The notes beneath the pieces are model-generated. The model did not search any database and was not told where the DNA came from. It saw nothing but the letters and a program-made list of their open reading frames with translations. Positions 8,469 to 49,874 of a stretch of DNA of 64,000 nucleotides are shown here, in pieces. Source of the DNA: Eledone cirrhosa (taxonomy: Eukaryota); contig OZ024740.1 of assembly GCA_964016885.1 (NCBI GenBank), positions 420,360,001 through 420,424,000 of the forward strand, in the 5' to 3' direction. A program made the position numbers and the translations under genes. How positions within the stretch are numbered: position 1 is the first letter of the stretch; the number at the start of each line of letters is the position of its first letter.

Positions 8469-8533
8469 TATTTCATTATACATATTTCAGGGATACCAAA
8501 TTAAAATATGGTATGCCTTCATCAGACAAAATA
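8469..8533 (-). ncRNA. Type I hammerhead ribozyme (family C)
   Basis: tattttgt CTGATGA aggcatacca..tggtatccct GAAA t atgt ATA atgaaata; stems I and II pair, minimal stem III. Confidence 0.8.
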
Positions 8534-10830: not shown

Positions 10831-10837
10831 ATATAAC

Positions 10838-14793: not shown

Positions 14794-14866
<73 letters not shown>

Positions 14867-14873
14867 ATATATA

Positions 14874-15763
14874 TAAATTAATAAAATAATGAATAAACAA
14901 AGAAACAGTTCCTTATATTAAAAAAAATTCATCATTTTACGATCGTTTCTAGGATATATATGTGTTAGAGTTGGTATGCATATTCTATAGATCTATGTAC
15001 AATATTTATACAAACTATCAGAGGGAATATACATACCTACACATATATATGCTGTCTTCAGAAATAATGATATTTGTTTATTGAAAAAAACAAAGATTCA
15101 ATACAATAGGTCTGTTTGGGAACAGGTTTTGAATTGACCAATAGAGAGATAGTGAGGGTCAAGATAGTAATATAGTAGTAGAAGAACCTTAAATTATGGG
15201 TAGAGGAAGGTAGATTTCAGTTTTGGATGGAAAAGAATATTATGAATGAAAGATTATTTTAGGGATGAATATAGGTTGTATGCTGACCTCAGAAATAATT
15301 ATATTTGTTCATTGAATAAAACCAACAAAGATCTAATATATTCTGTCTGTTTGGTAAGAGGTTTAGAATTAACCAATAGAAAGTTAATAATTGGCCAAAT
15401 GGTAAAATAGTAGTAATTGAAGCTTATTTTAGGGGTAGAATAAGGCAGATTTCAGTTTTGAATGGAGTGTGAAGAATGAGAAAGTTATTTTAGGGGTGAA
15501 AATAGGTCAGGTCAGTAAAAGGTATATGAGCAGTTGCTGTTATAAACCAGTAATGCCAATGCAAATATCTAAGGAGACTAAAATTTTATGATAAGAGTGT
15601 TAGTGAAAAAATACATCTATGAAAAGAATATAAATTAATTTAATTAATGGGTATATTTATATTGATAAAATTATACTAATGCATATAGTTATGATAAATA
15701 AGAGTTAGATGTAGTTGAAGAGTGCTGTTAAAGATGAGGGGAAATTAAAATAATATAAAAATA

Positions 15764-15824
<61 letters not shown>

Positions 15825-15840
15825 CACACACACATATACA
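14874..15840 (-). mobile_element. Naiad-type PLE family B, 3' part (continues at 39880-41218 beyond the nested array)
   Basis: Near-identical to 42063-42960; contains a hammerhead and a diverged duplication of about 230 bp. Confidence 0.85.
14929..15070 (-). ncRNA. Hammerhead with long stem II (family B)
   Basis: tcattattt CTGAAGA cagcatatatatgtgt...acacatatatatccta GAAAC gatc GTA aaatgatga. Confidence 0.78.
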
Positions 15841-15915
15841 CATATATATATATATATATATATAAAATATTAAACAAATAATGAATAAACAATTCCTTAT
15901 ATTAAACAAAAAAAG

Positions 15916-16069
15916 TTCATTATTTAACGATCGTTTCTAGGATATATATGTGTTAGAGTTGGCATGCATATTCAACAGATCTATGTACAAAATTATACAA
16001 AATTATACAAACTATCAAGATTAAATATACATACCAACACATATATACGCCGTCTTCAGAAATAATGAA
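15916..16069 (-). ncRNA. Hammerhead with 115-nt stem II (family A, unit 1)
   Basis: TTCATTATTT CTGAAGA [115-nt hairpin] GAAAC gatc GTT AAATAATGAA; perfect 10-bp stem I, palindromic stem III. Confidence 0.8.
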
Positions 16070-16699
16070 ATATATTTATTGATAATAACAACAATTCAAA
16101 CTTTCAGGTCCGTTTGGGAACAAAATTGACCAATGAAAATACAAAAGGTTTAATGCCGTTCGGTGTGTGTATATACATGTAATAACCCTTACACATATTT
16201 TACAAAAATGTATGCACAACCTGTATACTCATACAAAAAGGATGGATGCAAATACAAAATTTCAAGGTTAATGTCTCTGTAAGTTTATAATGCACAGATA
16301 AGATGCGTATAGATACATAAATATGAAATAAGTGTATACACATATTTTCATACTAACACATATCCGTACAATCACACATACACGCGCGTATATGCATAAA
16401 CATACACATAAACTACAAACATACAAACACACACACACCACCACTCACATATATATATATGTGGATATAAAATCCTAAGCACATGGATATTAATTCACTC
16501 ACATAAACACTGGCACACACATTTAGATAAAGATACAGAAATTAGGTGGGAGGGGGGGGGAGAGGTCAGTATTCAACGGTTTGGGCTGCCTGCTTAATAT
16601 AGATGTATCTATAAACTAAGAAAATAAAAAATAATAATAAATAATAAATAAACATTAAAAAGGAAAGAAAAGAAAAAGAAAAAAGAAAAAAGAAAAAAG

Positions 16700-16711
16700 A
16701 AATATATCAAG

Positions 16712-16750
<39 letters not shown>

Positions 16751-16964
16751 ATATATATATATCTATATATATATATACATACATATATATATATATATAC
16801 ACATACATACACACACACACACACATATACATATACACATACACACATACAAACACATACATACATATGCACACATCCACACTTAGAACATAACATACAC
16901 ACACATATATAAACATATACATATACACACATAGATACAAATACACACATACATATAAATACAC

Positions 16965-17041
<77 letters not shown>

Positions 17042-17334
17042 CACTCATACATAGGCATATAATCACACATACTATATAGACACACATATATATACACACA
17101 TACATACACATATACCTACACTTACATACATATATACATACAGATATACACATACATACCTATATATACACACAAATACATACAGACATATATACATACA
17201 TACAGACAAATACTTACGCATCTATATATCGGTATATACATACAAACACCACTACACTCTCACACAACTCAGACATACAAAGAAAAAGGTATATACCCAT
17301 ACACATATACATATACAAATAGAGAAACATATAC

Positions 17335-17396
<62 letters not shown>

Positions 17397-17636
17397 ATAC
17401 ATATACATATACACATACACACATACACATACAAACACATACATACATGTACACACACATAGATATATATACACACACATACACACATACACATACATAT
17501 ATAGTCATACACACACATACACCTACACGAACATACACATACACATATACAAAGATATATATACACACACACACACACATACACACACACACATATATAA
17601 AAAAAAAAAAAAAAAAATAAATAAATAAATAAATAA

Positions 17637-17691
<55 letters not shown>

Positions 17692-18304
17692 CATACACAT
17701 ACATACACACATACATAGACATATATGTACATACATACATATACATAGATACATACACATACATACATACATATATATATACACACACATAGACATATAT
17801 ATACATACACACACAACATACATACACACATATATACTCATACATAGAATTAGATATATAAACATACATACATACGCACTTACATATACTCATATATACC
17901 AATACAAACGCATCCATATATGCGTATATACATAGAAACACCACTACACCCTCACCCAATTCAGATATACAAAGAAAAAGGCATATACATATACATATAT
18001 ACACGCATCAATAGAGATATATATACACATATATATATATATATATATATATGTGTGTACACACATACACTTATATGCATATACCCACACACACATACAA
18101 CCATAAATACACATACAAACACCCACATATATAAATATATACACATATATATATATATACACACACATAGAAAACAGACATGCACACATATATATTTTTT
18201 TACACATATATATACACATATATATACATATACACACCCTCATATATACACATACACATAAGTTATATTATAATAATAAATAATATATATATATATACAC
18301 ATAC

Positions 18305-18353
<49 letters not shown>

Positions 18354-18650
18354 CACACACACACATATGAATATAGACATATAAACACACATAGATATAT
18401 ATACATACATATATACAGATACATATACACACACACACATATACACATTCACATATACATGTGTGTGCATACACACATATATATACATACACACATATAC
18501 ACATAAACACACATATGTGTATACATGCACACACACACATATATCCACATAGATACGAAGATATACGTATAAATAGAGAGACATACATATATATACACGC
18601 ACACACATATACATACATACATACACACACATATATATATATACATATAC

Positions 18651-18720
<70 letters not shown>

Positions 18721-18900
18721 AGACATAGACATACACATACATATACACACATGCATATATACACACATATACACATACATACACACACATATATATATAC
18801 ACACAATCATACATTCTTATTTGCATGCGCATATATGTATTTTTATATTCAGATATAAATACCCAAATATATATACACCTACCTACATATATATTCATAC
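16700..18900. repeat. Complex (TA)/(CA)/(TACA) microsatellite field inside the PLE 3' UTR, repeated in every unit
   Basis: Same pattern at about 23630-25810, 30535-32715 and 37450-39620. Confidence 0.9.
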
Positions 18901-20067
18901 AAACACGCTTACAAACACAGATGATAATAGTATGGGGGAAAGGGGGGGGGGTTGGAGAAGGGGATTATAGTAAATATATGTTTCAAGAAACATAGAATAT
19001 TATCCGTATCTAGATCCAATGTATGTTTATACATAGTATCAGTGTTAGGAAATACAATAAACAAGGAATAAGGCGAAATTTATGCAATTCAAAATAAATA
19101 AGTATACCATTAATTATATGTTAACTAAACTAAAGATAGTTAACATATTGATTTCTAAGGTGTAAATTAGTTAGGTTTATAATATTTGAAGCAGAATTTT
19201 GAAGTTAAATAGTAGTAGAGTATTAATTATAGTATAACTAAATTAAAGTTAATAACTTTATGGTATCAATATTAGGAAATGAATTTAGTAATAGGGAAAA
19301 AACAAATAAAGTATTACATCGGTAGTAGAATATAAAATATAGGTTAATTAAATTAAAAATTATATATTTATTTCTATAGTATATGTTAATTAGGTATATA
19401 ATAAATAAAACAGATATTGTATTTTATCAATAGCAGAATATAATTATATGCAAATAGAAATCAAAATTAATACATATATATATACATATACATACACATA
19501 TATATATACACATATATATACACATATATATATACATATATACACATATACATACGCACATACATACACATACACATATACATATACATATTTTTTCAAA
19601 AATTGCAAAGAATATATTAACTAGGTATAAATCCAAAACACATCCCATTCTATGATTAGATGACATTCTGCAATTCGTCTGTATAAGGATATTAATTTTA
19701 AGCCAATTAAATTAAATTTTTAGGTTGATTAAAATTAAAACCAAATTATAAATATATTTCTAAAATGTATATTAATTAGGTCTATATTACTAAAAATTAT
19801 TTCTCTGTCATTGGATACACTATATTTTGTTATATTTTATCTGTAAAAGAATTATAATAAAAAAAAAAAAAATTATAATAAAAGGTTTAAATAAATTAAA
19901 ATTAATCTATAAATTAAAATACTAAGTATATATTAGTAATATTTAAAGGTTTTTCACAATTTATGATTACATAATATTTTATATTCTCATCTGTAATAGA
20001 ATTTTAATTAAATTAAATTTATAGGTTAACTAACATTTAAATTAAATTAATTTCTAAAATAATGTTA

Positions 20068-22491
20068 TTAATTAGGTTTATAATATTTAAATGTTTTTTT
20101 TAATTTATGATTACACGATATAATTAATTCCTGTCGTTTATTTAATAGGATATCCTTAGATTTCATTATTTCAAATAGTTCTTGGGAACATAATCTACAT
20201 TCATTTCTATTATTTTGATAAGGGGTGGCTCTTTTGAGCACACTCCAGGTCAAATCATATTCTATATTCTTATTTTTATAACTATTGATTTTTTCTGCTA
20301 GAGATGTTGTATTAGCCAGTGCGGCATTTTTAAAACTATGCTTATGGGTATTAAACCTTGTCTTAAAATTGTTAGAGGTAGCTCCTATATATGAGCAAAT
20401 AGAATCTTTAGTTTTAACATTACATTTATAGACTATGTTGTTAACAAGACAATTCCCTTTTAATGGGCAGTTTGCTTTGTTTCTACAGTTACAACCTTTC
20501 GTTAATTCCGTATTTGAGGAGATATTATGGTTAATTTGATGTACTGGTGGTATACTTATGGTTTTCTTACATTTATATGCATTATAGGCACTTATATTTT
20601 GTTTTATGTTATTTGTTGTAGAGTATGAGAATTTAACTGTAGACCTATTTAAGATTTGATGGTATTTGTGGTTTGGCGGGAAGTTTTTCTCTAGGATATA
20701 AAAAAATTTTTTAGCAATATTATCCTTAATTTGTAAATTAAATGGAGCATTATACCAAGTAACCCGTCTATTACGGTTTCTATGTTGTTTATTATTTTTA
20801 TTATTTTTATAGGTTGTATCGTGATTTTTACTAGGAGGATTAATGTTAATGAACTCACCACAACCATTTTTAGTTATATTTGTAGATTTAGGTGTTTTAT
20901 CCTTTTTATTAGGAGTTTTATTAATATGATAAGTAGTTTTTTGAGAGTTACTATACTTTATATTAGAAGATTTGGTATTTTGGGGTATAGTGTGGGTGGC
21001 ATTTAGGTGTGTACTTTTCATTTGGTGTTTGTTGGTAATATTAGGTTGTATGCTTTCAGTATTTTTAGTAGAAGGTATATATTCTAATCTATTTTTGTGG
21101 CCACTTCTATCTAGAGCTTCGTTATAGAAGGTCGCATTTTTATCAAAAACATCTTGGTTAGAAGAAAGGTTAGAAATTCTAAGTGATATATTATATGCAA
21201 GGTTTTTAAGGATAGATTTAGGGTGATTAGATTGTGAGTGTATGTAATGTAAGTTTTGGTTTGGTTTATGGTAAGGTTGGTAGATACCCGTAGCTAAATC
21301 TAAAGTTATATCTAGGAAATTTACTACTTTACTTGTTTTTTCAAAAGTAATATTAAGATTATAATAGTCTTTAAGGAAAGTTCTAATATGTTTTTTGTTT
21401 TTTTCAATTTCTGAAAGGCTAAGGTTGTTAGAAAGAAGAAGACAGTCATCACGATATAAACCACCTTTGAGGTGGGGAAAGGAGGCATTTATGTTGAAAA
21501 GGAGAAAGAGGCCCACAAGATCAGTAATTTGGGCGGAATCACTTGAACCCATAGTAATATCAAAAAGATTACTATATGTGTTTCTGGTCCAGTATTCATT
21601 CTGAAATTCAATAAGTGTTAGTCTAGCATGTGTAATAATATTAATGTCATCCAAAGTTAAGTTAGATCTATTTTTAGCAAATATCAATGCTTTGTTCAGG
21701 AGTATAGGTGATATAGAAGAATAGTAATTATCTATATCAAATTGTAGAAATGAAGCAGAAGATTTACATCTAATATTTTTAAACCAGTTAATTACCTGGG
21801 AGGTGTTTTCCCAGAGTGGTAAAATAACGTATTTTCTTATTTGTGGGATGACTCTATCCAAAATTTTTTTGCTAATTATTCCAATATCTGATTTGGAGGG
21901 ACATATAAGTCTAATAGAAGGATTTGAGTTAAAATTTGATTTATGATCCTTCAGGTTGAAGTGTGGTCTTTTCAATGCCAAAGGTTCAGTTCTATCTTCA
22001 ATGTTTAGTTTTTTTACTATGTTGTGTGTTTTGTTGTTGATGTTGGTGAGTGACCCATTATTAGATTTTTTATAATTTTTTCTGAGTTCTTTATATATGA
22101 ATTCATTATAATGTTCAATATCCATATGATACAAGTTACCAGTTTTGTCCGAGTGGACATGGAATTTTTTAGACTTTTTTAGGTCCAATAGGGTAGAATC
22201 AAGGTCCTTTTGAAAGACGGATTTATACTTTTTAAATTTGAGGTGTTTAATTAAATTAAAAAGGTCTTTCTCGAAGTCTTCAAGTAAAAAGTTGTGTGGT
22301 GGATTCTTGTAAGTATTGAAATCATACATATATTTCCGATCTGCTTGTTTAGATTTTCTATCGAAGTGGTAGGCTCTCCATCTAACCCTTCTGATAAAAT
22401 TATTAGTTTTCTGAATCATAAGGAGTAAGAAGTCATCCTTAGAAGGTATTGGTATGTTTTTTAAAGAGGTTCCTAAATATTGTTTTTCCAT
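20068..22491 (-). CDS. PLE (Naiad-type) reverse transcriptase + C-terminal GIY-YIG endonuclease; first ATG at 22491 (track starts at TTG 22512)
   Basis: SLKNIPIP/RRVRWRA N-terminus, FDIDNYY, ITMGS, GGLYRDD, FLDITL, CNC..CPLKGNC, VY..SYIGAT..R..H, CRLC..E..LN..CNH. Confidence 0.95.
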   Translation of the reverse strand: MEKQYLGTSLKNIPIPSKDDFLLLMIQKTNNFIRRVRWRAYHFDRKSKQADRKYMYDFNTYKNPPHNFLLEDFEKDLFNLIKHLKFKKYKSVFQKDLDSTLLDLKKSKKFHVHSDKTGNLYHMDIEHYNEFIYKELRKNYKKSNNGSLTNINNKTHNIVKKLNIEDRTEPLALKRPHFNLKDHKSNFNSNPSIRLICPSKSDIGIISKKILDRVIPQIRKYVILPLWENTSQVINWFKNIRCKSSASFLQFDIDNYYSSISPILLNKALIFAKNRSNLTLDDINIITHARLTLIEFQNEYWTRNTYSNLFDITMGSSDSAQITDLVGLFLLFNINASFPHLKGGLYRDDCLLLSNNLSLSEIEKNKKHIRTFLKDYYNLNITFEKTSKVVNFLDITLDLATGIYQPYHKPNQNLHYIHSQSNHPKSILKNLAYNISLRISNLSSNQDVFDKNATFYNEALDRSGHKNRLEYIPSTKNTESIQPNITNKHQMKSTHLNATHTIPQNTKSSNIKYSNSQKTTYHINKTPNKKDKTPKSTNITKNGCGEFININPPSKNHDTTYKNNKNNKQHRNRNRRVTWYNAPFNLQIKDNIAKKFFYILEKNFPPNHKYHQILNRSTVKFSYSTTNNIKQNISAYNAYKCKKTISIPPVHQINHNISSNTELTKGCNCRNKANCPLKGNCLVNNIVYKCNVKTKDSICSYIGATSNNFKTRFNTHKHSFKNAALANTTSLAEKINSYKNKNIEYDLTWSVLKRATPYQNNRNECRLCSQELFEIMKSKDILLNKRQELIISCNHKLKKTFKYYKPN

Positions 22492-22832
22492 TGTGATATG
22501 GATGATGGACAATTGAAAGAGCTCAACTAAATGTATATGGGTTTATAAAATCATACATATATATGTATATACATAAATATAAAATTAATACACACATACA
22601 GTACAAAAATACGAATATTTCCGTGAAAATAGGAGCAAAATTATGTAGATAAATCTACCAAGAGTTTACGGTAGTGTCCAATCCGTATGAAGAACTCAAT
22701 GTATTCCGGATATCATGGAAAGAAGAAATGTAATGAAAAATCACTTTCGGTGAAAGATAAACGGTATACAGAGTCAAGATAAAATATTAAACAAATAATG
22801 AATAAACAATTCCTTATATTAAACAAAAAAAG

Positions 22833-22986
22833 TTCATTATTTAACGATCGTTTCTAGGATATATATGTGTTAGAGTTGGCATGCATATTCAACAGATCTA
22901 TGTACAAAATTATACAAAATTATACAAACTATCAAGATTAAATATACATACCAACACATATATACGCCGTCTTCAGAAATAATGAA
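22833..22986 (-). ncRNA. Hammerhead with 115-nt stem II (family A, unit 2)
   Basis: Identical to 15916-16069. Confidence 0.8.
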
Positions 22987-23632
22987 ATATATTTATTGAT
23001 AATAACAACAATTCAAACTTTCAGGTCCGTTTGGGAACAAAATTGACCAATGAAAATACAAAAGGTTTAATGCCGTTCGGTGTGTGTATATACATGTAAT
23101 AACCCTTACACATATTTTACAAAAATGTATGCACAACCTGTATACTCATACAAAAAGGATGGATGCAAATACAAAATTTCAAGGTTAATGTCTCTGTAAG
23201 TTTATAATGCACAGATAAGATGCGTATAGATACATAAATATGAAATAAGTGTATACACATATTTTCATACTAACACATATCCGTACAATCACACATACAC
23301 GCGCGTATATGCATAAACATACACATAAACTACAAACATACAAACACACACACACCACCACTCACATATATATATATGTGGATATAAAATCCTAAGCACA
23401 TGGATATTAATTCACTCACATAAACACTGGCACACACATTTAGATAAAGATACAGAAATTAGGTGGGAGGGGGGGGAGAGGTCAGTATTCAACGGTTTGG
23501 GCTGCCTGCTTAATATAGATGTATCTATAAACTAAGAAAATAAAAAATAATAATAAATAATAAATAAACATTAAAAAGGAAAGAAAAGAAAAAGAAAAAA
23601 GAAAAGAAAAAAGAAAAAAGAAATATATCAAG

Positions 23633-23667
<35 letters not shown>

Positions 23668-23881
23668 ATATATATATATCTATATATATATATACATACA
23701 TATATATATATATATACACATACATACACACACACACACACATATACATATACACATACACACATACAAACACATACATACATATGCACACATCCACACT
23801 TAGAACATAACATACACACACATATATAAACATATACATATACACACATAGATACAAATACACACATACATATAAATACAC

Positions 23882-23956
<75 letters not shown>

Positions 23957-24243
23957 CACTCATACATAGGCATATAATCACACATACTATATAGACACAC
24001 ATATATATACACACATACATACACATATACCTACACTTACATACATATATACATACAGATATACACATACATACCTATATATACACACAAATACATACAG
24101 ACATATATACATACATACAGACAAATACTTACGCATCTATATATCGGTATATACATACAAACACCACTACACTCTCACACAACTCAGACATACAAAGAAA
24201 AAGGTATATACCCATACACATATACATATACAAATAGAGAAAC

Positions 24244-24304
<61 letters not shown>

Positions 24305-24540
24305 CATACATATACATATACACATACACACATACACATACAAACACATACATACATGTACACACACATAGATATATATACACACACATACACACATACA
24401 CATACATATATAGTCATACACACACATACACCTACACGAACATACACATACACATATACAAAGATATATATACACACACACACACACATACACACACACA
24501 CATATATAAAAAAAAAAAAAAAAAAAAAAAAATAAAGATA

Positions 24541-24594
<54 letters not shown>

Positions 24595-25553
24595 CATACA
24601 CATACATACACACATACATAGACATATATGTACATACATACATATACATAGATACATACACATACATACATACATATATATATACACACACATAGACATA
24701 TATATACATACACACACAACATACATACACACATATATACTCATACATAGAATTAGATATATAAACATACATACATACGCACTTACATATACTCATATAT
24801 ACCAATACAAACGCATCCATATATGCGTATATACATAGAAACACCACTACACCCTCACCCAATTCAGATATACAAAGAAAAAGGCATATACATATACATA
24901 TATACACGCATCAATAGAGATATATATACACATATATATATATATATATATATGTGTGTACACACATACACTTATATGCATATACCCACACACACATACA
25001 ACCATAAATACACATACAAACACCCACATATATAAATATATACACATATATATATATATACACACACATAGAAAACAGACATGCACACATATATATTTTT
25101 TTACACATATATATACACATATATATACATATACACACCCTCATATATACACATACACATAAGTTATATTATAATAATAAATAATATATATATATATACA
25201 CATACATATATATATATATATATACATATGTATATATATACATATATATATATATACACACACACACATATGAATATAGACATATAAACACACATAGATA
25301 TATATACATACATATATACAGATACATATACACACACACACATATACACATTCACATATACATGTGTGTGCATACACACATATATATACATACACACATA
25401 TACACATAAACACACATATGTGTATACATGCACACACACACATATATCCACATAGATACGAAGATATACGTATAAATAGAGAGACATACATATATATACA
25501 CGCACACACATATACATACATACATACACACACATATATATATATACATATAC

Positions 25554-25622
<69 letters not shown>

Positions 25623-26974
25623 CAGACATAGACATACACATACATATACACACATGCATATATACACACATATACACATACATACACACACATATATATA
25701 TACACACAATCATACATTCTTATTTGCATGCGCATATATGTATTTTTATATTCAGATATAAATACCCAAATATATATACACCTACCTACATATATATTCA
25801 TACAAACACGCTTACAAACACAGATGATAATAGTATGGGGGAAAGGGGGGGGGGGGGGTTGGAGAAGGGGATTATAGTAAATATATGTTTCAAGAAACAT
25901 AGAATATTATCCGTATCTAGATCCAATGTATGTTTATACATAGTATCAGTGTTAGGAAATACAATAAACAAGGAATAAGGCGAAATTTATGCAATTCAAA
26001 ATAAATAAGTATACCATTAATTATATGTTAACTAAACTAAAGATAGTTAACATATTGATTTCTAAGGTGTAAATTAGTTAGGTTTATAATATTTGAAGCA
26101 GAATTTTGAAGTTAAATAGTAGTAGAGTATTAATTATAGTATAACTAAATTAAAGTTAATAACTTTATGGTATCAATATTAGGAAATGAATTTAGTAATA
26201 GGGAAAAAACAAATAAAGTATTACATCGGTAGTAGAATATAAAATATAGGTTAATTAAATTAAAAATTATATATTTATTTCTATAGTATATGTTAATTAG
26301 GTATATAATAAATAAAACAGATATTGTATTTTATCAATAGCAGAATATAATTATATGCAAATAGAAATCAAAATTAATACATATATATATACATATACAT
26401 ACACATATATATATACACATATATATACACATATATATATACATATATACACATATACATACGCACATACATACACATACACATATACATATACATATTT
26501 TTTCAAAAATTGCAAAGAATATATTAACTAGGTATAAATCCAAAACACATCCCATTCTATGATTAGATGACATTCTGCAATTCGTCTGTATAAGGATATT
26601 AATTTTAAGCCAATTAAATTAAATTTTTAGGTTGATTAAAATTAAAACCAAATTATAAATATATTTCTAAAATGTATATTAATTAGGTCTATATTACTAA
26701 AAATTATTTCTCTGTCATTGGATACACTATATTTTGTTATATTTTATCTGTAAAAGAATTATAATAAAAAAAAAAAAAATTATAATAAAAGGTTTAAATA
26801 AATTAAAATTAATCTATAAATTAAAATACTAAGTATATATTAGTAATATTTAAAGGTTTTTCACAATTTATGATTACATAATATTTTATATTCTCATCTG
26901 TAATAGAATTTTAATTAAATTAAATTTATAGGTTAACTAACATTTAAATTAAATTAATTTCTAAAATAATGTTA

Positions 26975-29398: not shown

Positions 29399-29739
29399 TG
29401 TGATATGGATGATGGACAATTGAAAGAGCTCAACTAAATGTATATGGGTTTATAAAATCATACATATATATGTATATACATAAATATAAAATTAATACAC
29501 ACATACAGTACAAAAATACGAATATTTCCGTGAAAATAGGAGCAAAATTATGTAGATAAATCTACCAAGAGTTTACGGTAGTGTCCAATCCGTATGAAGA
29601 ACTCAATGTATTCCGGATATCATGGAAAGAAGAAATGTAATGAAAAATCACTTTCGGTGAAAGATAAACGGTATACAGAGTCAAGATAAAATATTAAACA
29701 AATAATGAATAAACAATTCCTTATATTAAACAAAAAAAG

Positions 29740-29893
29740 TTCATTATTTAACGATCGTTTCTAGGATATATATGTGTTAGAGTTGGCATGCATATTCAAC
29801 AGATCTATGTACAAAATTATACAAAATTATACAAACTATCAAGATTAAATATACATACCAACACATATATACGCCGTCTTCAGAAATAATGAA
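29740..29893 (-). ncRNA. Hammerhead with 115-nt stem II (family A, unit 3)
   Basis: Identical to 15916-16069. Confidence 0.8.
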
Positions 29894-30533
29894 ATATATT
29901 TATTGATAATAACAACAATTCAAACTTTCAGGTCCGTTTGGGAACAAAATTGACCAATGAAAATACAAAAGGTTTAATGCCGTTCGGTGTGTGTATATAC
30001 ATGTAATAACCCTTACACATATTTTACAAAAATGTATGCACAACCTGTATACTCATACAAAAAGGATGGATGCAAATACAAAATTTCAAGGTTAATGTCT
30101 CTGTAAGTTTATAATGCACAGATAAGATGCGTATAGATACATAAATATGAAATAAGTGTATACACATATTTTCATACTAACACATATCCGTACAATCACA
30201 CATACACGCGCGTATATGCATAAACATACACATAAACTACAAACATACAAACACACACACACCACCACTCACATATATATATATGTGGATATAAAATCCT
30301 AAGCACATGGATATTAATTCACTCACATAAACACTGGCACACACATTTAGATAAAGATACAGAAATTAGGTGGGAGGGGGGGAGAGGTCAGTATTCAACG
30401 GTTTGGGCTGCCTGCTTAATATAGATGTATCTATAAACTAAGAAAATAAAAAATAATAATAAATAATAAATAAACATTAAAAAGGAAAGAAAAGAAAAAG
30501 AAAAAAGAAAAAAGAAAAAAGAAATATATCAAG

Positions 30534-30572
<39 letters not shown>

Positions 30573-30786
30573 ATATATATATATCTATATATATATATAC
30601 ATACATATATATATATATATACACATACATACACACACACACACACATATACATATACACATACACACATACAAACACATACATACATATGCACACATCC
30701 ACACTTAGAACATAACATACACACACATATATAAACATATACATATACACACATAGATACAAATACACACATACATATAAATACAC

Positions 30787-30859
<73 letters not shown>

Positions 30860-31152
30860 CACTCATACATAGGCATATAATCACACATACTATATAGACA
30901 CACATATATATACACACATACATACACATATACCTACACTTACATACATATATACATACAGATATACACATACATACCTATATATACACACAAATACATA
31001 CAGACATATATACATACATACAGACAAATACTTACGCATCTATATATCGGTATATACATACAAACACCACTACACTCTCACACAACTCAGACATACAAAG
31101 AAAAAGGTATATACCCATACACATATACATATACAAATAGAGAAACATATAC

Positions 31153-31214
<62 letters not shown>

Positions 31215-31453
31215 ATACATATACATATACACATACACACATACACATACAAACACATACATACATGTACACACACATAGATATATATACACACACATAC
31301 ACACATACACATACATATATAGTCATACACACACATACACCTACACGAACATACACATACACATATACAAAGATATATATACACACACACACACACATAC
31401 ACACACACACATATATAAAAAAAAAAAAAAAAAATAAATAAATAAATAAATAA

Positions 31454-31510
<57 letters not shown>

Positions 31511-32121
31511 CATACACATACATACACACATACATAGACATATATGTACATACATACATATACATAGATACATACACATACATACATACATATATATATA
31601 CACACACATAGACATATATATACATACACACACAACATACATACACACATATATACTCATACATAGAATTAGATATATAAACATACATACATACGCACTT
31701 ACATATACTCATATATACCAATACAAACGCATCCATATATGCGTATATACATAGAAACACCACTACACCCTCACCCAATTCAGATATACAAAGAAAAAGG
31801 CATATACATATACATATATACACGCATCAATAGAGATATATATACACATATATATATATATATATATATGTGTGTACACACATACACTTATATGCATATA
31901 CCCACACACACATACAACCATAAATACACATACAAACACCCACATATATAAATATATACACATATATATATATATACACACACATAGAAAACAGACATGC
32001 ACACATATATATTTTTTTACACATATATATACACATATATATACATATACACACCCTCATATATACACATACACATAAGTTATATTATAATAATAAATAA
32101 TATATATATATATACACATAC

Positions 32122-32170
<49 letters not shown>

Positions 32171-32467
32171 CACACACACACATATGAATATAGACATATA
32201 AACACACATAGATATATATACATACATATATACAGATACATATACACACACACACATATACACATTCACATATACATGTGTGTGCATACACACATATATA
32301 TACATACACACATATACACATAAACACACATATGTGTATACATGCACACACACACATATATCCACATAGATACGAAGATATACGTATAAATAGAGAGACA
32401 TACATATATATACACGCACACACATATACATACATACATACACACACATATATATATATACATATAC

Positions 32468-32535
<68 letters not shown>

Positions 32536-33882
32536 AGACATAGACATACACATACATATACACACATGCATATATACACACATATACACATACATACACA
32601 CACATATATATATACACACAATCATACATTCTTATTTGCATGCGCATATATGTATTTTTATATTCAGATATAAATACCCAAATATATATACACCTACCTA
32701 CATATATATTCATACAAACACGCTTACAAACACAGATGATAATAGTATGGGGGAAAGGGGGGGGGGTTGGAGAAGGGGATTATAGTAAATATATGTTTCA
32801 AGAAACATAGAATATTATCCGTATCTAGATCCAATGTATGTTTATACATAGTATCAGTGTTAGGAAATACAATAAACAAGGAATAAGGCGAAATTTATGC
32901 AATTCAAAATAAATAAGTATACCATTAATTATATGTTAACTAAACTAAAGATAGTTAACATATTGATTTCTAAGGTGTAAATTAGTTAGGTTTATAATAT
33001 TTGAAGCAGAATTTTGAAGTTAAATAGTAGTAGAGTATTAATTATAGTATAACTAAATTAAAGTTAATAACTTTATGGTATCAATATTAGGAAATGAATT
33101 TAGTAATAGGGAAAAAACAAATAAAGTATTACATCGGTAGTAGAATATAAAATATAGGTTAATTAAATTAAAAATTATATATTTATTTCTATAGTATATG
33201 TTAATTAGGTATATAATAAATAAAACAGATATTGTATTTTATCAATAGCAGAATATAATTATATGCAAATAGAAATCAAAATTAATACATATATATATAC
33301 ATATACATACACATATATATATACACATATATATACACATATATATATACATATATACACATATACATACGCACATACATACACATACACATATACATAT
33401 ACATATTTTTTCAAAAATTGCAAAGAATATATTAACTAGGTATAAATCCAAAACACATCCCATTCTATGATTAGATGACATTCTGCAATTCGTCTGTATA
33501 AGGATATTAATTTTAAGCCAATTAAATTAAATTTTTAGGTTGATTAAAATTAAAACCAAATTATAAATATATTTCTAAAATGTATATTAATTAGGTCTAT
33601 ATTACTAAAAATTATTTCTCTGTCATTGGATACACTATATTTTGTTATATTTTATCTGTAAAAGAATTATAATAAAAAAAAAAAAAATTATAATAAAAGG
33701 TTTAAATAAATTAAAATTAATCTATAAATTAAAATACTAAGTATATATTAGTAATATTTAAAGGTTTTTCACAATTTATGATTACATAATATTTTATATT
33801 CTCATCTGTAATAGAATTTTAATTAAATTAAATTTATAGGTTAACTAACATTTAAATTAAATTAATTTCTAAAATAATGTTA

Positions 33883-36306
33883 TTAATTAGGTTTATAATA
33901 TTTAAATGTTTTTTTTAATTTATGATTACACGATATAATTAATTCCTGTCGTTTATTTAATAGGATATCCTTAGATTTCATTATTTCAAATAGTTCTTGG
34001 GAACATAATCTACATTCATTTCTATTATTTTGATAAGGGGTGGCTCTTTTGAGCACACTCCAGGTCAAATCATATTCTATATTCTTATTTTTATAACTAT
34101 TGATTTTTTCTGCTAGAGATGTTGTATTAGCCAGTGCGGCATTTTTAAAACTATGCTTATGGGTATTAAACCTTGTCTTAAAATTGTTAGAGGTAGCTCC
34201 TATATATGAGCAAATAGAATCTTTAGTTTTAACATTACATTTATAGACTATGTTGTTAACAAGACAATTCCCTTTTAATGGGCAGTTTGCTTTGTTTCTA
34301 CAGTTACAACCTTTCGTTAATTCCGTATTTGAGGAGATATTATGGTTAATTTGATGTACTGGTGGTATACTTATGGTTTTCTTACATTTATATGCATTAT
34401 AGGCACTTATATTTTGTTTTATGTTATTTGTTGTAGAGTATGAGAATTTAACTGTAGACCTATTTAAGATTTGATGGTATTTGTGGTTTGGCGGGAAGTT
34501 TTTCTCTAGGATATAAAAAAATTTTTTAGCAATATTATCCTTAATTTGTAAATTAAATGGAGCATTATACCAAGTAACCCGTCTATTACGGTTTCTATGT
34601 TGTTTATTATTTTTATTATTTTTATAGGTTGTATCGTGATTTTTACTAGGAGGATTAATGTTAATGAACTCACCACAACCATTTTTAGTTATATTTGTAG
34701 ATTTAGGTGTTTTATCCTTTTTATTAGGAGTTTTATTAATATGATAAGTAGTTTTTTGAGAGTTACTATACTTTATATTAGAAGATTTGGTATTTTGGGG
34801 TATAGTGTGGGTGGCATTTAGGTGTGTACTTTTCATTTGGTGTTTGTTGGTAATATTAGGTTGTATGCTTTCAGTATTTTTAGTAGAAGGTATATATTCT
34901 AATCTATTTTTGTGGCCACTTCTATCTAGAGCTTCGTTATAGAAGGTCGCATTTTTATCAAAAACATCTTGGTTAGAAGAAAGGTTAGAAATTCTAAGTG
35001 ATATATTATATGCAAGGTTTTTAAGGATAGATTTAGGGTGATTAGATTGTGAGTGTATGTAATGTAAGTTTTGGTTTGGTTTATGGTAAGGTTGGTAGAT
35101 ACCCGTAGCTAAATCTAAAGTTATATCTAGGAAATTTACTACTTTACTTGTTTTTTCAAAAGTAATATTAAGATTATAATAGTCTTTAAGGAAAGTTCTA
35201 ATATGTTTTTTGTTTTTTTCAATTTCTGAAAGGCTAAGGTTGTTAGAAAGAAGAAGACAGTCATCACGATATAAACCACCTTTGAGGTGGGGAAAGGAGG
35301 CATTTATGTTGAAAAGGAGAAAGAGGCCCACAAGATCAGTAATTTGGGCGGAATCACTTGAACCCATAGTAATATCAAAAAGATTACTATATGTGTTTCT
35401 GGTCCAGTATTCATTCTGAAATTCAATAAGTGTTAGTCTAGCATGTGTAATAATATTAATGTCATCCAAAGTTAAGTTAGATCTATTTTTAGCAAATATC
35501 AATGCTTTGTTCAGGAGTATAGGTGATATAGAAGAATAGTAATTATCTATATCAAATTGTAGAAATGAAGCAGAAGATTTACATCTAATATTTTTAAACC
35601 AGTTAATTACCTGGGAGGTGTTTTCCCAGAGTGGTAAAATAACGTATTTTCTTATTTGTGGGATGACTCTATCCAAAATTTTTTTGCTAATTATTCCAAT
35701 ATCTGATTTGGAGGGACATATAAGTCTAATAGAAGGATTTGAGTTAAAATTTGATTTATGATCCTTCAGGTTGAAGTGTGGTCTTTTCAATGCCAAAGGT
35801 TCAGTTCTATCTTCAATGTTTAGTTTTTTTACTATGTTGTGTGTTTTGTTGTTGATGTTGGTGAGTGACCCATTATTAGATTTTTTATAATTTTTTCTGA
35901 GTTCTTTATATATGAATTCATTATAATGTTCAATATCCATATGATACAAGTTACCAGTTTTGTCCGAGTGGACATGGATTTTTTTAGACTTTTTTAGGTC
36001 CAATAGGGTAGAATCAAGGTCCTTTTGAAAGACGGATTTATACTTTTTAAATTTGAGGTGTTTAATTAAATTAAAAAGGTCTTTCTCGAAGTCTTCAAGT
36101 AAAAAGTTGTGTGGTGGATTCTTGTAAGTATTGAAATCATACATATATTTCCGATCTGCTTGTTTAGATTTTCTATCGAAGTGGTAGGCTCTCCATCTAA
36201 CCCTTCTGATAAAATTATTAGTTTTCTGAATCATAAGGAGTAAGAAGTCATCCTTAGAAGGTATTGGTATGTTTTTTAAAGAGGTTCCTAAATATTGTTT
36301 TTCCAT
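33883..36306 (-). CDS. PLE RT + GIY-YIG, copy 3
   Basis: One visible difference (KKIHV vs KKFHV). Confidence 0.95.
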   Translation of the reverse strand: MEKQYLGTSLKNIPIPSKDDFLLLMIQKTNNFIRRVRWRAYHFDRKSKQADRKYMYDFNTYKNPPHNFLLEDFEKDLFNLIKHLKFKKYKSVFQKDLDSTLLDLKKSKKIHVHSDKTGNLYHMDIEHYNEFIYKELRKNYKKSNNGSLTNINNKTHNIVKKLNIEDRTEPLALKRPHFNLKDHKSNFNSNPSIRLICPSKSDIGIISKKILDRVIPQIRKYVILPLWENTSQVINWFKNIRCKSSASFLQFDIDNYYSSISPILLNKALIFAKNRSNLTLDDINIITHARLTLIEFQNEYWTRNTYSNLFDITMGSSDSAQITDLVGLFLLFNINASFPHLKGGLYRDDCLLLSNNLSLSEIEKNKKHIRTFLKDYYNLNITFEKTSKVVNFLDITLDLATGIYQPYHKPNQNLHYIHSQSNHPKSILKNLAYNISLRISNLSSNQDVFDKNATFYNEALDRSGHKNRLEYIPSTKNTESIQPNITNKHQMKSTHLNATHTIPQNTKSSNIKYSNSQKTTYHINKTPNKKDKTPKSTNITKNGCGEFININPPSKNHDTTYKNNKNNKQHRNRNRRVTWYNAPFNLQIKDNIAKKFFYILEKNFPPNHKYHQILNRSTVKFSYSTTNNIKQNISAYNAYKCKKTISIPPVHQINHNISSNTELTKGCNCRNKANCPLKGNCLVNNIVYKCNVKTKDSICSYIGATSNNFKTRFNTHKHSFKNAALANTTSLAEKINSYKNKNIEYDLTWSVLKRATPYQNNRNECRLCSQELFEIMKSKDILLNKRQELIISCNHKLKKTFKYYKPN

Positions 36307-36647
36307 TGTGATATGGATGATGGACAATTGAAAGAGCTCAACTAAATGTATATGGGTTTATAAAATCATACATATATATGTATATACATAAATATAAAAT
36401 TAATACACACATACAGTACAAAAATACGAATATTTCCGTGAAAATAGGAGCAAAATTATGTAGATAAATCTACCAAGAGTTTACGGTAGTGTCCAATCCG
36501 TATGAAGAACTCAATGTATTCCGGATATCATGGAAAGAAGAAATGTAATGAAAAATCACTTTCGGTGAAAGATAAACGGTATACAGAGTCAAGATAAAAT
36601 ATTAAACAAATAATGAATAAACAATTCCTTATATTAAACAAAAAAAG

Positions 36648-36801
36648 TTCATTATTTAACGATCGTTTCTAGGATATATATGTGTTAGAGTTGGCATGCA
36701 TATTCAACAGATCTATGTACAAAATTATACAAAATTATACAAACTATCAAGATTAAATATACATACCAACACATATATACGCCGTCTTCAGAAATAATGA
36801 A
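36648..36801 (-). ncRNA. Hammerhead with 115-nt stem II (family A, unit 4)
   Basis: Identical to 15916-16069. Confidence 0.8.
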
Positions 36802-37448
36802 ATATATTTATTGATAATAACAACAATTCAAACTTTCAGGTCCGTTTGGGAACAAAATTGACCAATGAAAATACAAAAGGTTTAATGCCGTTCGGTGTGT
36901 GTATATACATGTAATAACCCTTACACATATTTTACAAAAATGTATGCACAACCTGTATACTCATACAAAAAGGATGGATGCAAATACAAAATTTCAAGGT
37001 TAATGTCTCTGTAAGTTTATAATGCACAGATAAGATGCGTATAGATACATAAATATGAAATAAGTGTATACACATATTTTCATACTAACACATATCCGTA
37101 CAATCACACATACACGCGCGTATATGCATAAACATACACATAAACTACAAACATACAAACACACACACACCACCACTCACATATATATATATGTGGATAT
37201 AAAATCCTAAGCACATGGATATTAATTCACTCACATAAACACTGGCACACACATTTAGATAAAGATACAGAAATTAGGTGGGAGGGGGGGGGAGAGGTCA
37301 GTATTCAACGGTTTGGGCTGCCTGCTTAATATAGATGTATCTATAAACTAAGAAAATAAAAAATAATAATAAATAATAAATAAACATTAAAAAGGAAAGA
37401 AAAGAAAAAGAAAAAAGAAAAGAAAAAAGAAAAAAGAAATATATCAAG

Positions 37449-37483
<35 letters not shown>

Positions 37484-37697
37484 ATATATATATATCTATA
37501 TATATATATACATACATATATATATATATATACACATACATACACACACACACACACATATACATATACACATACACACATACAAACACATACATACATA
37601 TGCACACATCCACACTTAGAACATAACATACACACACATATATAAACATATACATATACACACATAGATACAAATACACACATACATATAAATACAC

Positions 37698-37772
<75 letters not shown>

Positions 37773-38059
37773 CACTCATACATAGGCATATAATCACACA
37801 TACTATATAGACACACATATATATACACACATACATACACATATACCTACACTTACATACATATATACATACAGATATACACATACATACCTATATATAC
37901 ACACAAATACATACAGACATATATACATACATACAGACAAATACTTACGCATCTATATATCGGTATATACATACAAACACCACTACACTCTCACACAACT
38001 CAGACATACAAAGAAAAAGGTATATACCCATACACATATACATATACAAATAGAGAAAC

Positions 38060-38118
<59 letters not shown>

Positions 38119-38318
38119 CATACATATACATATACACATACACACATACACATACAAACACATACATACATGTACACACACATAGATATATATACACACA
38201 CATACACACATACACATACATATATAGTCATACACACACATACACCTACACGAACATACACATACACATATACAAAGATATATATACACACACACACACA
38301 CATACACACACACACATA

Positions 38319-38352
<34 letters not shown>

Positions 38353-38353
38353 A

Positions 38354-38412
<59 letters not shown>

Positions 38413-39371
38413 CATACACATACATACACACATACATAGACATATATGTACATACATACATATACATAGATACATACACATACATACATACATATATATA
38501 TACACACACATAGACATATATATACATACACACACAACATACATACACACATATATACTCATACATAGAATTAGATATATAAACATACATACATACGCAC
38601 TTACATATACTCATATATACCAATACAAACGCATCCATATATGCGTATATACATAGAAACACCACTACACCCTCACCCAATTCAGATATACAAAGAAAAA
38701 GGCATATACATATACATATATACACGCATCAATAGAGATATATATACACATATATATATATATATATATATGTGTGTACACACATACACTTATATGCATA
38801 TACCCACACACACATACAACCATAAATACACATACAAACACCCACATATATAAATATATACACATATATATATATATACACACACATAGAAAACAGACAT
38901 GCACACATATATATTTTTTTACACATATATATACACATATATATACATATACACACCCTCATATATACACATACACATAAGTTATATTATAATAATAAAT
39001 AATATATATATATATACACATACATATATATATATATATATACATATGTATATATATACATATATATATATATACACACACACACATATGAATATAGACA
39101 TATAAACACACATAGATATATATACATACATATATACAGATACATATACACACACACACATATACACATTCACATATACATGTGTGTGCATACACACATA
39201 TATATACATACACACATATACACATAAACACACATATGTGTATACATGCACACACACACATATATCCACATAGATACGAAGATATACGTATAAATAGAGA
39301 GACATACATATATATACACGCACACACATATACATACATACATACACACACATATATATATATACATATAC

Positions 39372-39439
<68 letters not shown>

Positions 39440-39824
39440 AGACATAGACATACACATACATATACACACATGCATATATACACACATATACACATACATA
39501 CACACACATATATATATACACACAATCATACATTCTTATTTGCATGCGCATATATGTATTTTTATATTCAGATATAAATACCCAAATATATATACACCTA
39601 CCTACATATATATTCATACAAACACGCTTACAAACACAGATGATAATAGTATGGGGGAAAGGGGGGGTTGGAGAAGGGGATTATAGTAAATATATGTTTC
39701 AAGAAACATAGAATATTATCCGTATCTAGATCCAATGTATGTTTATACATAGTATCAGTGTTAGGAAATACAATAAACAAGGAATAAGGCGAAATTTATG
39801 CAATTCAAAATAAATAAGTATACC

Positions 39825-39879
<55 letters not shown>

Positions 39880-39896
<17 letters not shown>

Positions 39897-41216
39897 CACA
39901 CACATATATACATACATACATACACATATATATACACACACATACATAGTTACATATACATATAATTATTGGGGGGGGGGATTAAATTTATTAGTGAGAA
40001 ATAATAAATATATAGAGATTTCAAGGAACATATAGTCATAACCTGAAGTTAAGGCATTATATATGTTTACTTAATGGTATCAGTTTTAGGAAAGGAAGCA
40101 TTTATGTTAAAAAGAAGAAAGAGGCCCACAAGATCAGTAATTTGGGCAGAATCACTTGAGCCCATAGTAATATCGAATAGATTACTATATGTGTTTCTGG
40201 TCCAGTATTCATTTTGAAATTCCAATAGTGTTAGTCTGGCATGTGTAATAATATTAATGTCATCCAAACTTAAGTTAGATCTATTTTTAGCAAATATCAA
40301 GGCTTTGTTCAGGAGTATAGGTGATATAGAAGAATAATAATTATCTATATCAAATTGTAGAAATGAAGCAGAGGATTTATTTCTAATATTATTAAACCAG
40401 TTAATTACCTGGGATGTGTTTTCCCAGAGTGGTAAATTAACATGTTTTCTTAGTTGTGGGATGACTCTATCTAAAATTTTTTTACTAATGATTCCAATAT
40501 CAGATTTGGAAGGGCATATAAGCCTTATAGAAGGATTAGAGTTAAAGTTAGATTTATGATCTTTCAGGTTGAAGTGTGGTCTTTTCAGTGCCAAAGGTTC
40601 AGTTCTATCTTCAATATTAAGTCTATTCACTATGCTGTGTGTTTTGTTGTTGATGTTGGTAAGTGACGCATTGTTTGTTTTTCTATAATTTTTCCTGAGT
40701 TCTTTATAAATGAACTCATTGTAATTTTCAATATCCATGTGATATAGATTTCCAGTTTTGTCCGAGTGGACATGGATTTTTTTAGATTTTTTTAGGTCCA
40801 ATAGGGTAGAATCAAGGTCCTTTTGAAAATTAGATTTATACCTCTTAAATTTGAGGTGTTTGATTAAATTAAAAAGGTCTTTCTCAAAGTTTTCAAGTAA
40901 GGAGTTGTGTGGTGGATTTTTATATGTAGTGAAATCATACAAGTATTTCCTATCAGTAGATTTTGTTTTTTTATCGAAGTGGTAGGCCCTCCATCTGACT
41001 CTTCTGATAAATTGGTTGGTTTTTTGTATCATAAGAAGTAAGAAATCATCCTTAGAAGGTAATGGTATATTCTTTAAAGAAGTTCCCAAGTATTGTTTTT
41101 CTGTTAATTTTCACCGAAAATAGTTTTTGAATGCATCTTCTCTTTTCATAATATCCGGATTACATTGAGTTCTTCATACGGATTGGACACTACCGTAAAT
41201 TTTTGGTAGATTTATC

Positions 41217-41218
<2 letters not shown>
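39880..41218 (-). mobile_element. Naiad-type PLE family B, 5' part: 3' UTR piece, internally deleted ORF and inverted terminal tail (41101-41218)
   Basis: 39950-40090 matches 47225-47350; ORF is a close relative of family A; 41101-41218 is the reverse complement of about 41931-42048. Confidence 0.88.
40067..41100 (-). pseudogene. N-terminal half of PLE RT, deleted just before the YRDD motif
   Basis: 340-aa ORF ends ...NASFPK and is fused to 3' UTR at a GGAAA microhomology. Confidence 0.9.
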
Positions 41219-41929: not shown

Positions 41930-41933
<4 letters not shown>

Positions 41934-42960
41934 TAAATCTACCAAAAATTTACGGTAGTGTCCAATCCGTATGAAGTACTCAATGTAATCCGGATATCAT
42001 GAAAAGAGAAGATGCATTCAAAAACTATTTTCGGTGAAAATTAACGGAAAACAGAGTCAAGATAAATTAATAAAGTAATGAATAAACAGTTCCTTATATT
42101 AAAAAAATTCATCATTTTACGATCGTTTCTAGGATATATATGTGTTAGTGTTGGTATGCATATTCTATAGATCTATGTAAAATATTTATACAAACTATCA
42201 GAGGGAATATACATACCTACACATATATATGCTGTCTTCAGAAATAATGATATTTGTTTATTGAAAAAACAAAGATTTAATACAATAGGTCTGTTTGGGA
42301 ACAGGTTTTGAATTGACCAATAGAAAGTTAGTGAAGGTCAAGATAGTAATCTAGTAGTAAAAGAACCTTAATTTATGGGTAGAGGAAGGTAGATTTCAGT
42401 TTTGGATGGGAAAGAATATTATGAATGAAAGATTATTTTAGGGATGAAAATAGGTTGTATGCTGACCTCAGAAATAATTATATTTGTTCATAGAATGAAA
42501 CCAACAAAGATTTGATATAGTCTGTCTGTTTGGTAACAGGTTTAGAATTAACCAATAGAAAGTTAATAATTGGCCAAATGGTAAAATAGTAGTAATTGAA
42601 GTTTATTTTAGGGGTAGATGAAGGTAGATTTCAGTTTTGAATGGAGTGTGAAGAATGAGAAGGTTATTTTAGGGGTGAAAATAGGTCAGGTCAGTAAAAG
42701 GTATATGAACAGTTGCTGTTATAAAATAGTAATGCCAATGCAAATATCTAAGGAGACTAAAATTTTACGATAAGAGTGTTAGTGAAAAAAATACATCCAT
42801 GAAAAGAATATAAATTAATTTAATTGATGGGTATATTTATATTGATAAAATTATACTAATGCATATAGATATGATAAATAAGAGTTAGATGTAGTTGAAG
42901 AGTGCTGTTAAAGATGAGGGGAAATTAAAAGAATATAAAAATGATATATATATATATATA
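41930..42960 (-). mobile_element. Naiad-type PLE family B, second copy, 3' end with tail (continues at 47115-48815)
   Basis: Tail + hammerhead + 3' UTR; interrupted at an internal (TA)n by the full-length RTE. Confidence 0.88.
42109..42250 (-). ncRNA. Hammerhead with long stem II (family B)
   Basis: Same fold as 14929-15070, GUA cleavage triplet. Confidence 0.78.
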
Positions 42961-42961
42961 T

Positions 42962-47114: not shown

Positions 47115-47156
47115 GATATATATACATATATATACACACACATACACACACACACA

Positions 47157-47188
<32 letters not shown>

Positions 47189-49814: not shown

Positions 49815-49874
<60 letters not shown>

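Follow-up and report, generated by a model that had tools for sequence, protein, structure and literature searches.

Probable nesting of a Penelope-like tandem array and an RTE-like LINE in the 3' UTR microsatellites of related elements in Eledone cirrhosa

In this study, a stretch of 64,000 nucleotides from Eledone cirrhosa (GenBank assembly GCA_964016885.1, contig OZ024740.1, positions 420,360,001 to 420,424,000), hereafter the window, was investigated with respect to its retroelements, and all coordinates below are positions within it. The window holds a head-to-tail array of a Penelope-like element (PLE), here family A, together with two copies, B1 and B2, of a related family B, and a long interspersed nuclear element (LINE) of RTE-like type. 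Families A and B carry a TA/CA microsatellite in their 3' untranslated region (UTR), and we observed that the array lies within this tract of B1 and the LINE within that of B2. We consider it likely that a TA-seeking family A element of the Hydra clade and the RTE-like LINE became nested in the TA tracts of older B copies.

Families A and B

The array extends over 15862..39826 on the minus strand (23,965 bp, 3.5 units) and comprises three full units at 15862-22778, 22779-29685 and 29686-36593, of 6917, 6907 and 6908 bp, and a 5'-truncated unit of 3233 bp at 36594-39826, with UTR variants in ABAB order along the units. In unit 1, an intact open reading frame (ORF) at 20068..22491 on the minus strand encodes 807 amino acids from the first methionine, with a PLE reverse transcriptase (RT) followed by a C-terminal GIY-YIG-type endonuclease; the frame is also open at 26975-29449 and 33883-36357, and the open frame amounts to 824 codons per unit. 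Each unit harbors one TA/CA microsatellite of 2.1 kb in its 3' UTR (16715..18814 in unit 1), at a position homologous to the tract of B.

The A protein (P0001) displays RT motifs and a C-terminal VY..YIG..F..R module. Among 20 aligned sequences, W55, D132 and K133 of its RWR and DKT motifs are invariant and R54 and T134 nearly so, while the CxCx5C linker (C684/C686/C692), the CxxC pair (C782/C785) and the CxH motif (C810/H812) are nearly invariant, and no conserved cysteine pair was found between the GIY and YIG halves. Across this alignment the first motif reads RW[RK], and conservation extends to the RT core and the GIY-YIG-type module. With 8000 candidates scored, 328 homologues were obtained, showing identities of up to 48% among the 120 listed, and the best named relative was an Argonauta protein (42% identity). 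The comparison with Pfam gave no match at E 0.001 or above cut-off, and the profile search against PDB returned only a retron RT (E 0.006). Neither search yielded a PLE match, and the assignment rests on the motifs and on likeness to published Hydra proteins.

The Hydra clade is defined by an RWK-type motif near the N-terminus, DKT replacing DKG, the CxCx5C, CxxC and CxH motifs and the lack of CCHH; (TA)n insertion is given for 26 of the 27 families in the supplementary table, and the elements tend to be shorter than 3 kb, with lengths of 1080-3045 bp in that table (PMC8557442). The unit of A, at 6.9 kb, does not share the general length below 3 kb, and we regard this as a deviation from a tendency and not as an exclusion. 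Membership of Naiad/Chlamys was rejected, as an N-terminal endonuclease is expected there and the one found here is C-terminal; so was membership of Neptune/Nematis/Poseidon, as the CCHH motif within the GIY-YIG domain is not present. The ORF remnants of B are 9.7% and 9.4% divergent from A, with protein identities of 84-92%. The preliminary description of this DNA had not noticed that A and B are the same kind of element: judged by their sequences, they are best described as sister subfamilies, about 10% apart, of one putative Hydra-clade PLE.

Nesting of the array in B1

B1 was probably targeted to an external TA tract (14794..14875) with TTT-type interruptions. The 3' part of its 3' UTR (14876..15762, minus strand) starts from a 3' end of the shorter kind (type 1) near 14876 and includes a hammerhead motif and degenerate 235-bp duplications, for which the Tandem Repeats Finder run was made on the B2 equivalent. 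Next comes the left part of the internal TA/CA tract (15763..15864), ending at the array 3' junction. Beyond the array lie the right part of the tract (39827..39964) and the UTR from a G-run onward (39965..40093, minus strand), which is colinear with 47234-47353 and stops at a deletion of about 1.55 kb marked by a 5-bp microhomology. An N-terminal ORF remnant follows at 40094..41101 (minus strand; the one 9.7% divergent from A), running from the RT to just before the catalytic motif, and the 5' end of B1 is occupied by an inverted, 5'-truncated second copy (41097..41216, plus strand) with a short microhomology joint and the longer, type 2 3' end beside TA. The degenerate 235-bp tandem duplication, seen at 15048-15507 and 42228-42686, is a trait of the B UTR that is not found in A, and its units include the 5' side of the hammerhead.

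In the self-alignment of the window, the left half of B1 (14873-15782) matches 42062-42962 of B2 with 95.2% identity, and 39846-40096 matches 47116-47356; by global alignment the left halves differ at 32 of 888 aligned bases (3.6%). The right parts of both copies share the order of tract, G-run and UTR as well as the strand, and both ends of the array (15862 and 39826) lie in TA runs of the B1 tract, so that the nesting itself, as the preliminary description proposed it, is upheld. Its further claim that 14874-15840 and 39880-41218 are colinear halves of one B element stands in full for the left half, and for the right half over 39880-40093 only (about 210 bp): at about 40090, some 1.55 kb are skipped through the 5-bp microhomology to RT sequence that is absent from B2, the stretch 41097-41216 is inverted, and B1 and B2 retain separate parts of the ORF with no overlap. 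The window holds no uninterrupted copy of B, and the colinearity was therefore compared with the sister family A and with the other B copy. The uninterrupted A units present, on one strand, the 3' end, hammerhead, UTR, TA/CA tract, G-run, UTR and stop codon in the same order as B, with 70% identity in the flank past the tract (A 18853-19191 against B 47159-47487). This indicates that the tract is part of the element, lies in its 3' UTR and is older than the split of A and B.

The nature of the TA tracts at the junctions bears on whether the two B halves ever formed one copy. External TA tracts carry TTT, AAA or TTAA interruptions in 25 of 28 cases, the three exceptions lying inside another small element, as against none of the 35 TA tracts internal to A and none of the four break-point tracts, where about eight interruptions would be expected at the external rate. 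The junction tracts therefore bear the element-borne and not the external signature. It could be supposed instead that the halves are separate fragments, one a copy truncated at the tract and the other a copy reverse-transcribed from the tract, independently inserted around the array. Truncation into a TA target would indeed occur readily at a TA tract, a PLE RT is able to begin at internal positions of its RNA (PMC11167929), and, as the ORF pieces do not overlap, only about 130 bp of UTR and the inverted end link the right half to B. Against this supposition, the same order and strand would have to arise by chance twice, the junction tracts have the signature just described, the LINE in B2 is enclosed by a 10-bp repeat, and the internal starts reported in PMC11167929 lie at sites not homologous to the target. 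Taken as a single unit, B1 also shows the arrangement usual for PLEs, in which a main copy is joined by an inverted 5'-truncated one; the arrangement recurs at 60955-61480. We hold the separate origin of the halves to be highly improbable. As for the array, the 3' end at its left junction recurs at 14876 and 60955, and on the right the array is 5'-truncated into TA. In all, the evidence supports two independent insertions, each nested in a 3' UTR microsatellite that belongs to the element.

B2 and the RTE-like LINE

The 3' part of B2 (41932..42963, minus strand) includes a type 2 end, the hammerhead and the left stub of the tract, and its right part (47116..48815, minus strand) comprises the tract up to 47233, the UTR and a frameshifted C-terminal ORF at 47463-48815, 5'-truncated into an external TA tract. 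Between these halves, which are equivalent to those of B1, lies the LINE at 42964..47115 on the plus strand (4152 bp), with AP endonuclease, an RT with an inserted PHD finger, a trinucleotide tail, one frameshift and a 10-bp flanking direct repeat. The endonuclease and RT are read in one frame with no separate ORF1, the PHD domain is also present, and a PHD finger within the RT region is common among its relatives. That this insert splits B2 in its tract agrees with the preliminary description; its designation as full-length has to be narrowed, as the coding region is complete in extent with a frameshift near 45064, and no other copy in the window reaches as far at the 5' end.

LINEs of the RTE clade have one ORF and are not known to carry a separate ORF1. 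The LINE at 42964-47115 shows the short-repeat tail and a target duplication within 7-15 bp, and its frame is broken once; we call it RTE-like by its domains, tail and duplication, its relatives being listed without clade names. Six further copies of the same family were found at 12286-14794, 50806-52993, 53896-53957, 54860-56853, 58863-60653 and 61937-62585, and the five longest, including the nested one, are 2-5% apart. All six retained 3' ends of this family lie in TA.

The two inserts had been described as hitting the same tract region. The same tract is confirmed. Within it, the highest-scoring split (62.4) has the LINE in the first long TA run and the array in the second, and a single shared site, which scores 53.5, is thereby disfavoured. 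They probably occupy different TA runs, the low-complexity sequence offering modest evidence, and with break points apparently staggered in this way each B copy spans the break of the other.

TA tracts and the landing-pad question

The preliminary description had further taken the two hits to mark the B UTR as a landing pad. All 13 retained 3' ends of the two inserting families in the window (seven PLE, six LINE) adjoin TA tracts, against a background of 10-15% of positions; the LINE copy at 12286-14794 was left out of the count, its 3' end being lost, and the least clear instance, at 70% alternating, is the LINE nested in B2. Only two of the 13 lie in a B tract, the other 11 being in external TA, and TA also flanks at least two further PLE families of the window. 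Beyond about 8 kb the window amounts to a nest of elements that seek TA, in which the B UTR is one target among many.

The B tracts hold 185 of the 4648 perfect-TA bases outside the array (4%), so that the two observed insertions compare with 0.44-0.52 expected (from 11 events or 13 ends; P(>=2) = 0.07-0.09), a slight excess that does not reach significance. The B UTR tract might nonetheless be a genuine hotspot that is favoured above other (TA)n, for instance if its C-interrupted runs, nearby element sequence or open chromatin suited both endonucleases. The excess of two over the expected number, the hits on both B copies by two unrelated enzymes and the position-specific hotspots known inside human transposable elements (PMC2836564) speak for this; the P value of 0.07-0.09 from two events, the probable use of different TA runs, the 11 ends in external TA and the larger A tract do not. 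The latter, with 1889 perfect-TA bases in the array, is without insertion in all four units, young though it is, and such an absence is also what would be expected if it is young. A true hotspot is therefore judged unlikely. As both inserting families go into (TA)n, the nesting probably follows from a known target preference without a special pad, and the landing-pad claim was not sustained.

The interruptions of the external tracts from 14794 to 63917 are nearly all TTT, AAA or TTAA, with 74 TTT and 17 AAA on the plus strand. Such a bias may come from one ancestral expanding tract, or from repair or sequencing bias. Their origin as abortive copies of PLE 3' ends was considered and found no support, as the 74:17 ratio holds from 14794 on whatever the strand of the neighbour.

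Structure of the array

In the 3233 bp common to all four units, no substitution and six indels separate unit 1 from unit 3, and two substitutions and five indels separate unit 2 from unit 4, compared with 4-5 substitutions and 10-11 indels in the four cross pairs. Twelve variable intervals, delimited by anchors, gave four ABAB, two ABAC and one ABCB pattern, and five others (two ABCD, ABCA, ABBB and ABCC). The units differ almost solely in repeat lengths; a substitution and indels of several bases are also part of the ABAB pattern. As the variants alternate, with unit 1 like 3 and unit 2 like 4, the period of the array is 13.8 kb. By our reasoning, ABAB is not easily obtained from a partial tandem by unequal crossover of single units, whereas a dimeric circular RNA, an already alternating source transcript, or DNA-level duplication and deletion would give it. 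A simple dimer has against it the single substitution in the ORF, which groups units 1 and 2, unit 3 having the state of B1. The array is young, and with three open ORFs the family is apparently young too.

The near identity of the units, with differences mostly in run lengths, also invites the thought that array and B1 arose in one event, by RT template switches from B to A and back to B RNA at TA runs, or that the assembler misplaced or over-expanded the array. As sisters, the two families could use a common RT, pure TA is found at both junctions, and an assembly effect is conceivable. Two switches are, however, less simple than a single insertion, and the LINE in B2 is a plain insertion into this very tract; the array has a precise junction on either side, with the 3' end of 14876 and 60955 on the left, and random consensus error would not repeat the substitution and multi-base indels of the ABAB pattern in phase. 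There is only a very slight chance that either holds, and we retain the nested insertion of A into B1.

Hammerhead motif and alternative 3' ends

A hammerhead-like motif of type I was predicted shortly before the 3' end in both A and B: at 14929..15070 in B1 (minus strand, with an unusually long stem II), 42109-42250 in B2, 15917-16068 in A unit 1 and 61142-61300 in a third A/B-like subfamily. The core motifs are invariant in all four copies, 98.5% of cells are paired with no double compensatory change, the folding z-scores are -5.0 and -3.2, the stem II region spans 115 nt and helix III is palindromic. Rfam showed no hammerhead among the 150 matches listed of 250, these being microsatellite-driven miRNA-like matches and one tRNA-like match, and a short-stem pattern search missed the motif because of its long stem II.

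The 3' ends fall into a shorter type (14876, 15865 and 60955) and a longer type (41216, 41417, 41932 and 61480), about 137 nt apart, and both inverted pairs have the shorter end on the main copy and the longer on the inverted copy. The second pair, at 60955-61480, is a small one of the third A/B-like subfamily, with its inversion point exactly at the hammerhead core. Tandem or pseudo-LTR (long terminal repeat) organisation, an inverted 5' copy and alternative 3' ends are features of endonuclease-bearing (EN+) PLEs that A and B display.

Other elements of the window

A Hydra-type PLE relic at 8338-10837, whose protein is 38-40% identical to that of A, is bordered by TA on both sides, includes an N-terminal piece in inverted orientation and has a hammerhead-like core near 8455-8525, and its 3' end recurs at 63023-63285. 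The endonuclease remnant of a canonical CCHH-type PLE, TA-flanked and with a hammerhead-like core at 57302-57360, occupies 57100-58195. At 49381-50417 and 58192-58793, a non-coding unit of about 517 bp is found in tandem, which has a short TA run of its own and a hammerhead-like core of compact form; from its sequence it may be termed retrozyme-like. Inverted-repeat fragments lie between TA tracts at 53266-53613 and 11400-11682, the first with hammerhead-like cores on both arms. A 29-bp minisatellite of 76.5 copies with extreme C-over-G skew covers 149-2367. A short, SINE-like (short interspersed nuclear element) unit occurs twice (5384-5552 and 49206-49375) with a tRNA-like 5' part, which Rfam scored as tRNA with 32.6 bits at 5394-5451; ARAGORN found no tRNA.

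Discussion

The course of events that we favour would run as follows. Families A and B would insert into (TA)n by target-primed reverse transcription, and with a TA/CA microsatellite in their own 3' UTR each copy that contains the UTR would become a possible target. B1 and B2 would first have entered external TA tracts, B1 losing its 1.55 kb at some stage; the RTE-like LINE, which also uses TA, would later have entered the first TA run of the B2 tract. In B1, the second TA run of the tract would have received the young subfamily A, either as a tandem of 3.5 units or growing into one. The anatomy, the clade motifs, the junctions, the TA flanks and the youth of the array are seen in the sequence itself; target priming at these sites, the order of events and the notion that the B tract is no better a target than TA of equal length are what we infer. 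According to previous studies, PLE endonuclease nicks the target, reverse transcription is target-primed and alternative internal starts give two 3' ends (PMC11167929), and tandem copies and inverted 5' copies have been reported in PLEs (PMC8557442). The distance of 3.6% between B1 and B2, set beside the near likeness of the array units, counts in favour of this course.

Several points weigh against it. Besides the want of an uninterrupted B copy in the window, the target-site duplication of the array is unreadable, as its junctions lie in pure TA. The candidate placement in the Hydra clade relies on motifs, with named references compared by eye and not by a tree. The age of B1 relative to A is suggested by its decay and by the nesting, and is undated. 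Both B copies that retain the tract (2/2) are interrupted there, in a tract that is only 4% of the perfect TA, and the enrichment estimate lets present-day TA lengths stand in for past ones, which have changed since insertion.

A bolder extension, which we put forward as a doubtful yet conceivable possibility, is that this Hydra lineage seeds itself by carrying its target microsatellite in its 3' UTR, with a tract of about 0.2 kb in B that has expanded in A to 2.1 kb, and that the ABAB array arose as the RT passed 1.75 times round a dimeric circular RNA of 13.8 kb. If so, each insertion would add more target than it used, giving growing nests shared with other TA-seeking elements, and the circular-template model of PLE tandems would become directly testable; there would be a positive feedback between retroelement and target, and a handle on how PLE tandem arrays form. 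Apart from this, the locus offers a worked example of (TA)n-targeting retroelements stacking into nests, and a warning for annotation, with the halves of one B copy lying 24 kb apart.

In the literature covered, which was incomplete with regard to subscription papers and preprint supplements, nothing relevant was found on a Hydra-clade element that carries, or nests in, its own target, and the accessible parts of two papers on octopus repeats (PMC13282606 and PMC9115989) do not touch on insertions nested in TA tracts. It is already well known that elements nest where older ones bear a suitable motif, from younger elements in older human transposable elements (Levy et al. 2010, PMC2836564) and also from PMC6911290 and PMC4486113. 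The human case resembles ours in that insertion takes place at particular positions of older elements because these carry the integration motif; it covers hundreds of thousands of events, as compared with two here, where the motif is a microsatellite common to the surrounding DNA. MuTAnT elements (PMC4486113) likewise use TA microsatellites as targets, but they are cut-and-paste DNA transposons of plants, with unrelated enzymes.

As regards the LINE, the account of RTE-clade LINEs in PMC6007223 describes AP endonuclease and RT, a trinucleotide-repeat 3' end and target duplications mostly of 10-12 bp, which agrees with the LINE at 42964-47115 and its 10-bp duplication starting with A; this LINE differs from those described there in the PHD finger within the RT region and in having six of six retained 3' ends in TA. 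A model for the tandems of PLEs, with circular RNA and products of more than unit length, was proposed by Cervera and de la Pena 2014 (PMC4209133), and further background to a circular template is given in PMC7761336 and bioRxiv 10.64898/2026.07.22.740005. The A array conforms to that model in its head-to-tail units, each with a type I hammerhead with a short palindromic helix III; a monomer circle would, however, give identical units, whereas the period of two needs a dimeric or alternating template or events at the DNA level.

Members of the Hydra clade such as Hydra-1_Obim and Hydra-1_Ajap, as presented in PMC8557442, share with A and B the single ORF with RT and C-terminal GIY-YIG endonuclease, the RWK-type, DKT, CxCx5C, CxxC and CxH motifs, a hammerhead near the 3' end, insertion into (TA)n, tandem copies and the inverted 5' copy. 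In contrast to the consensus lengths of 1080-3045 bp there, the A unit has 6.9 kb with a 3' UTR of 4.2 kb including the 2.1-kb microsatellite; the stem II of A and B, spanning 115 nt, is far longer than in the hammerheads listed; the two 3' ends lie about 137 nt apart where a tail of 30-40 bp is described; and three full tandem units are present in A where a partial tandem is described. Taken by its sequence, the element appears to add a further member to the Hydra clade, one set apart from the others by its length, UTR microsatellite and stem II.

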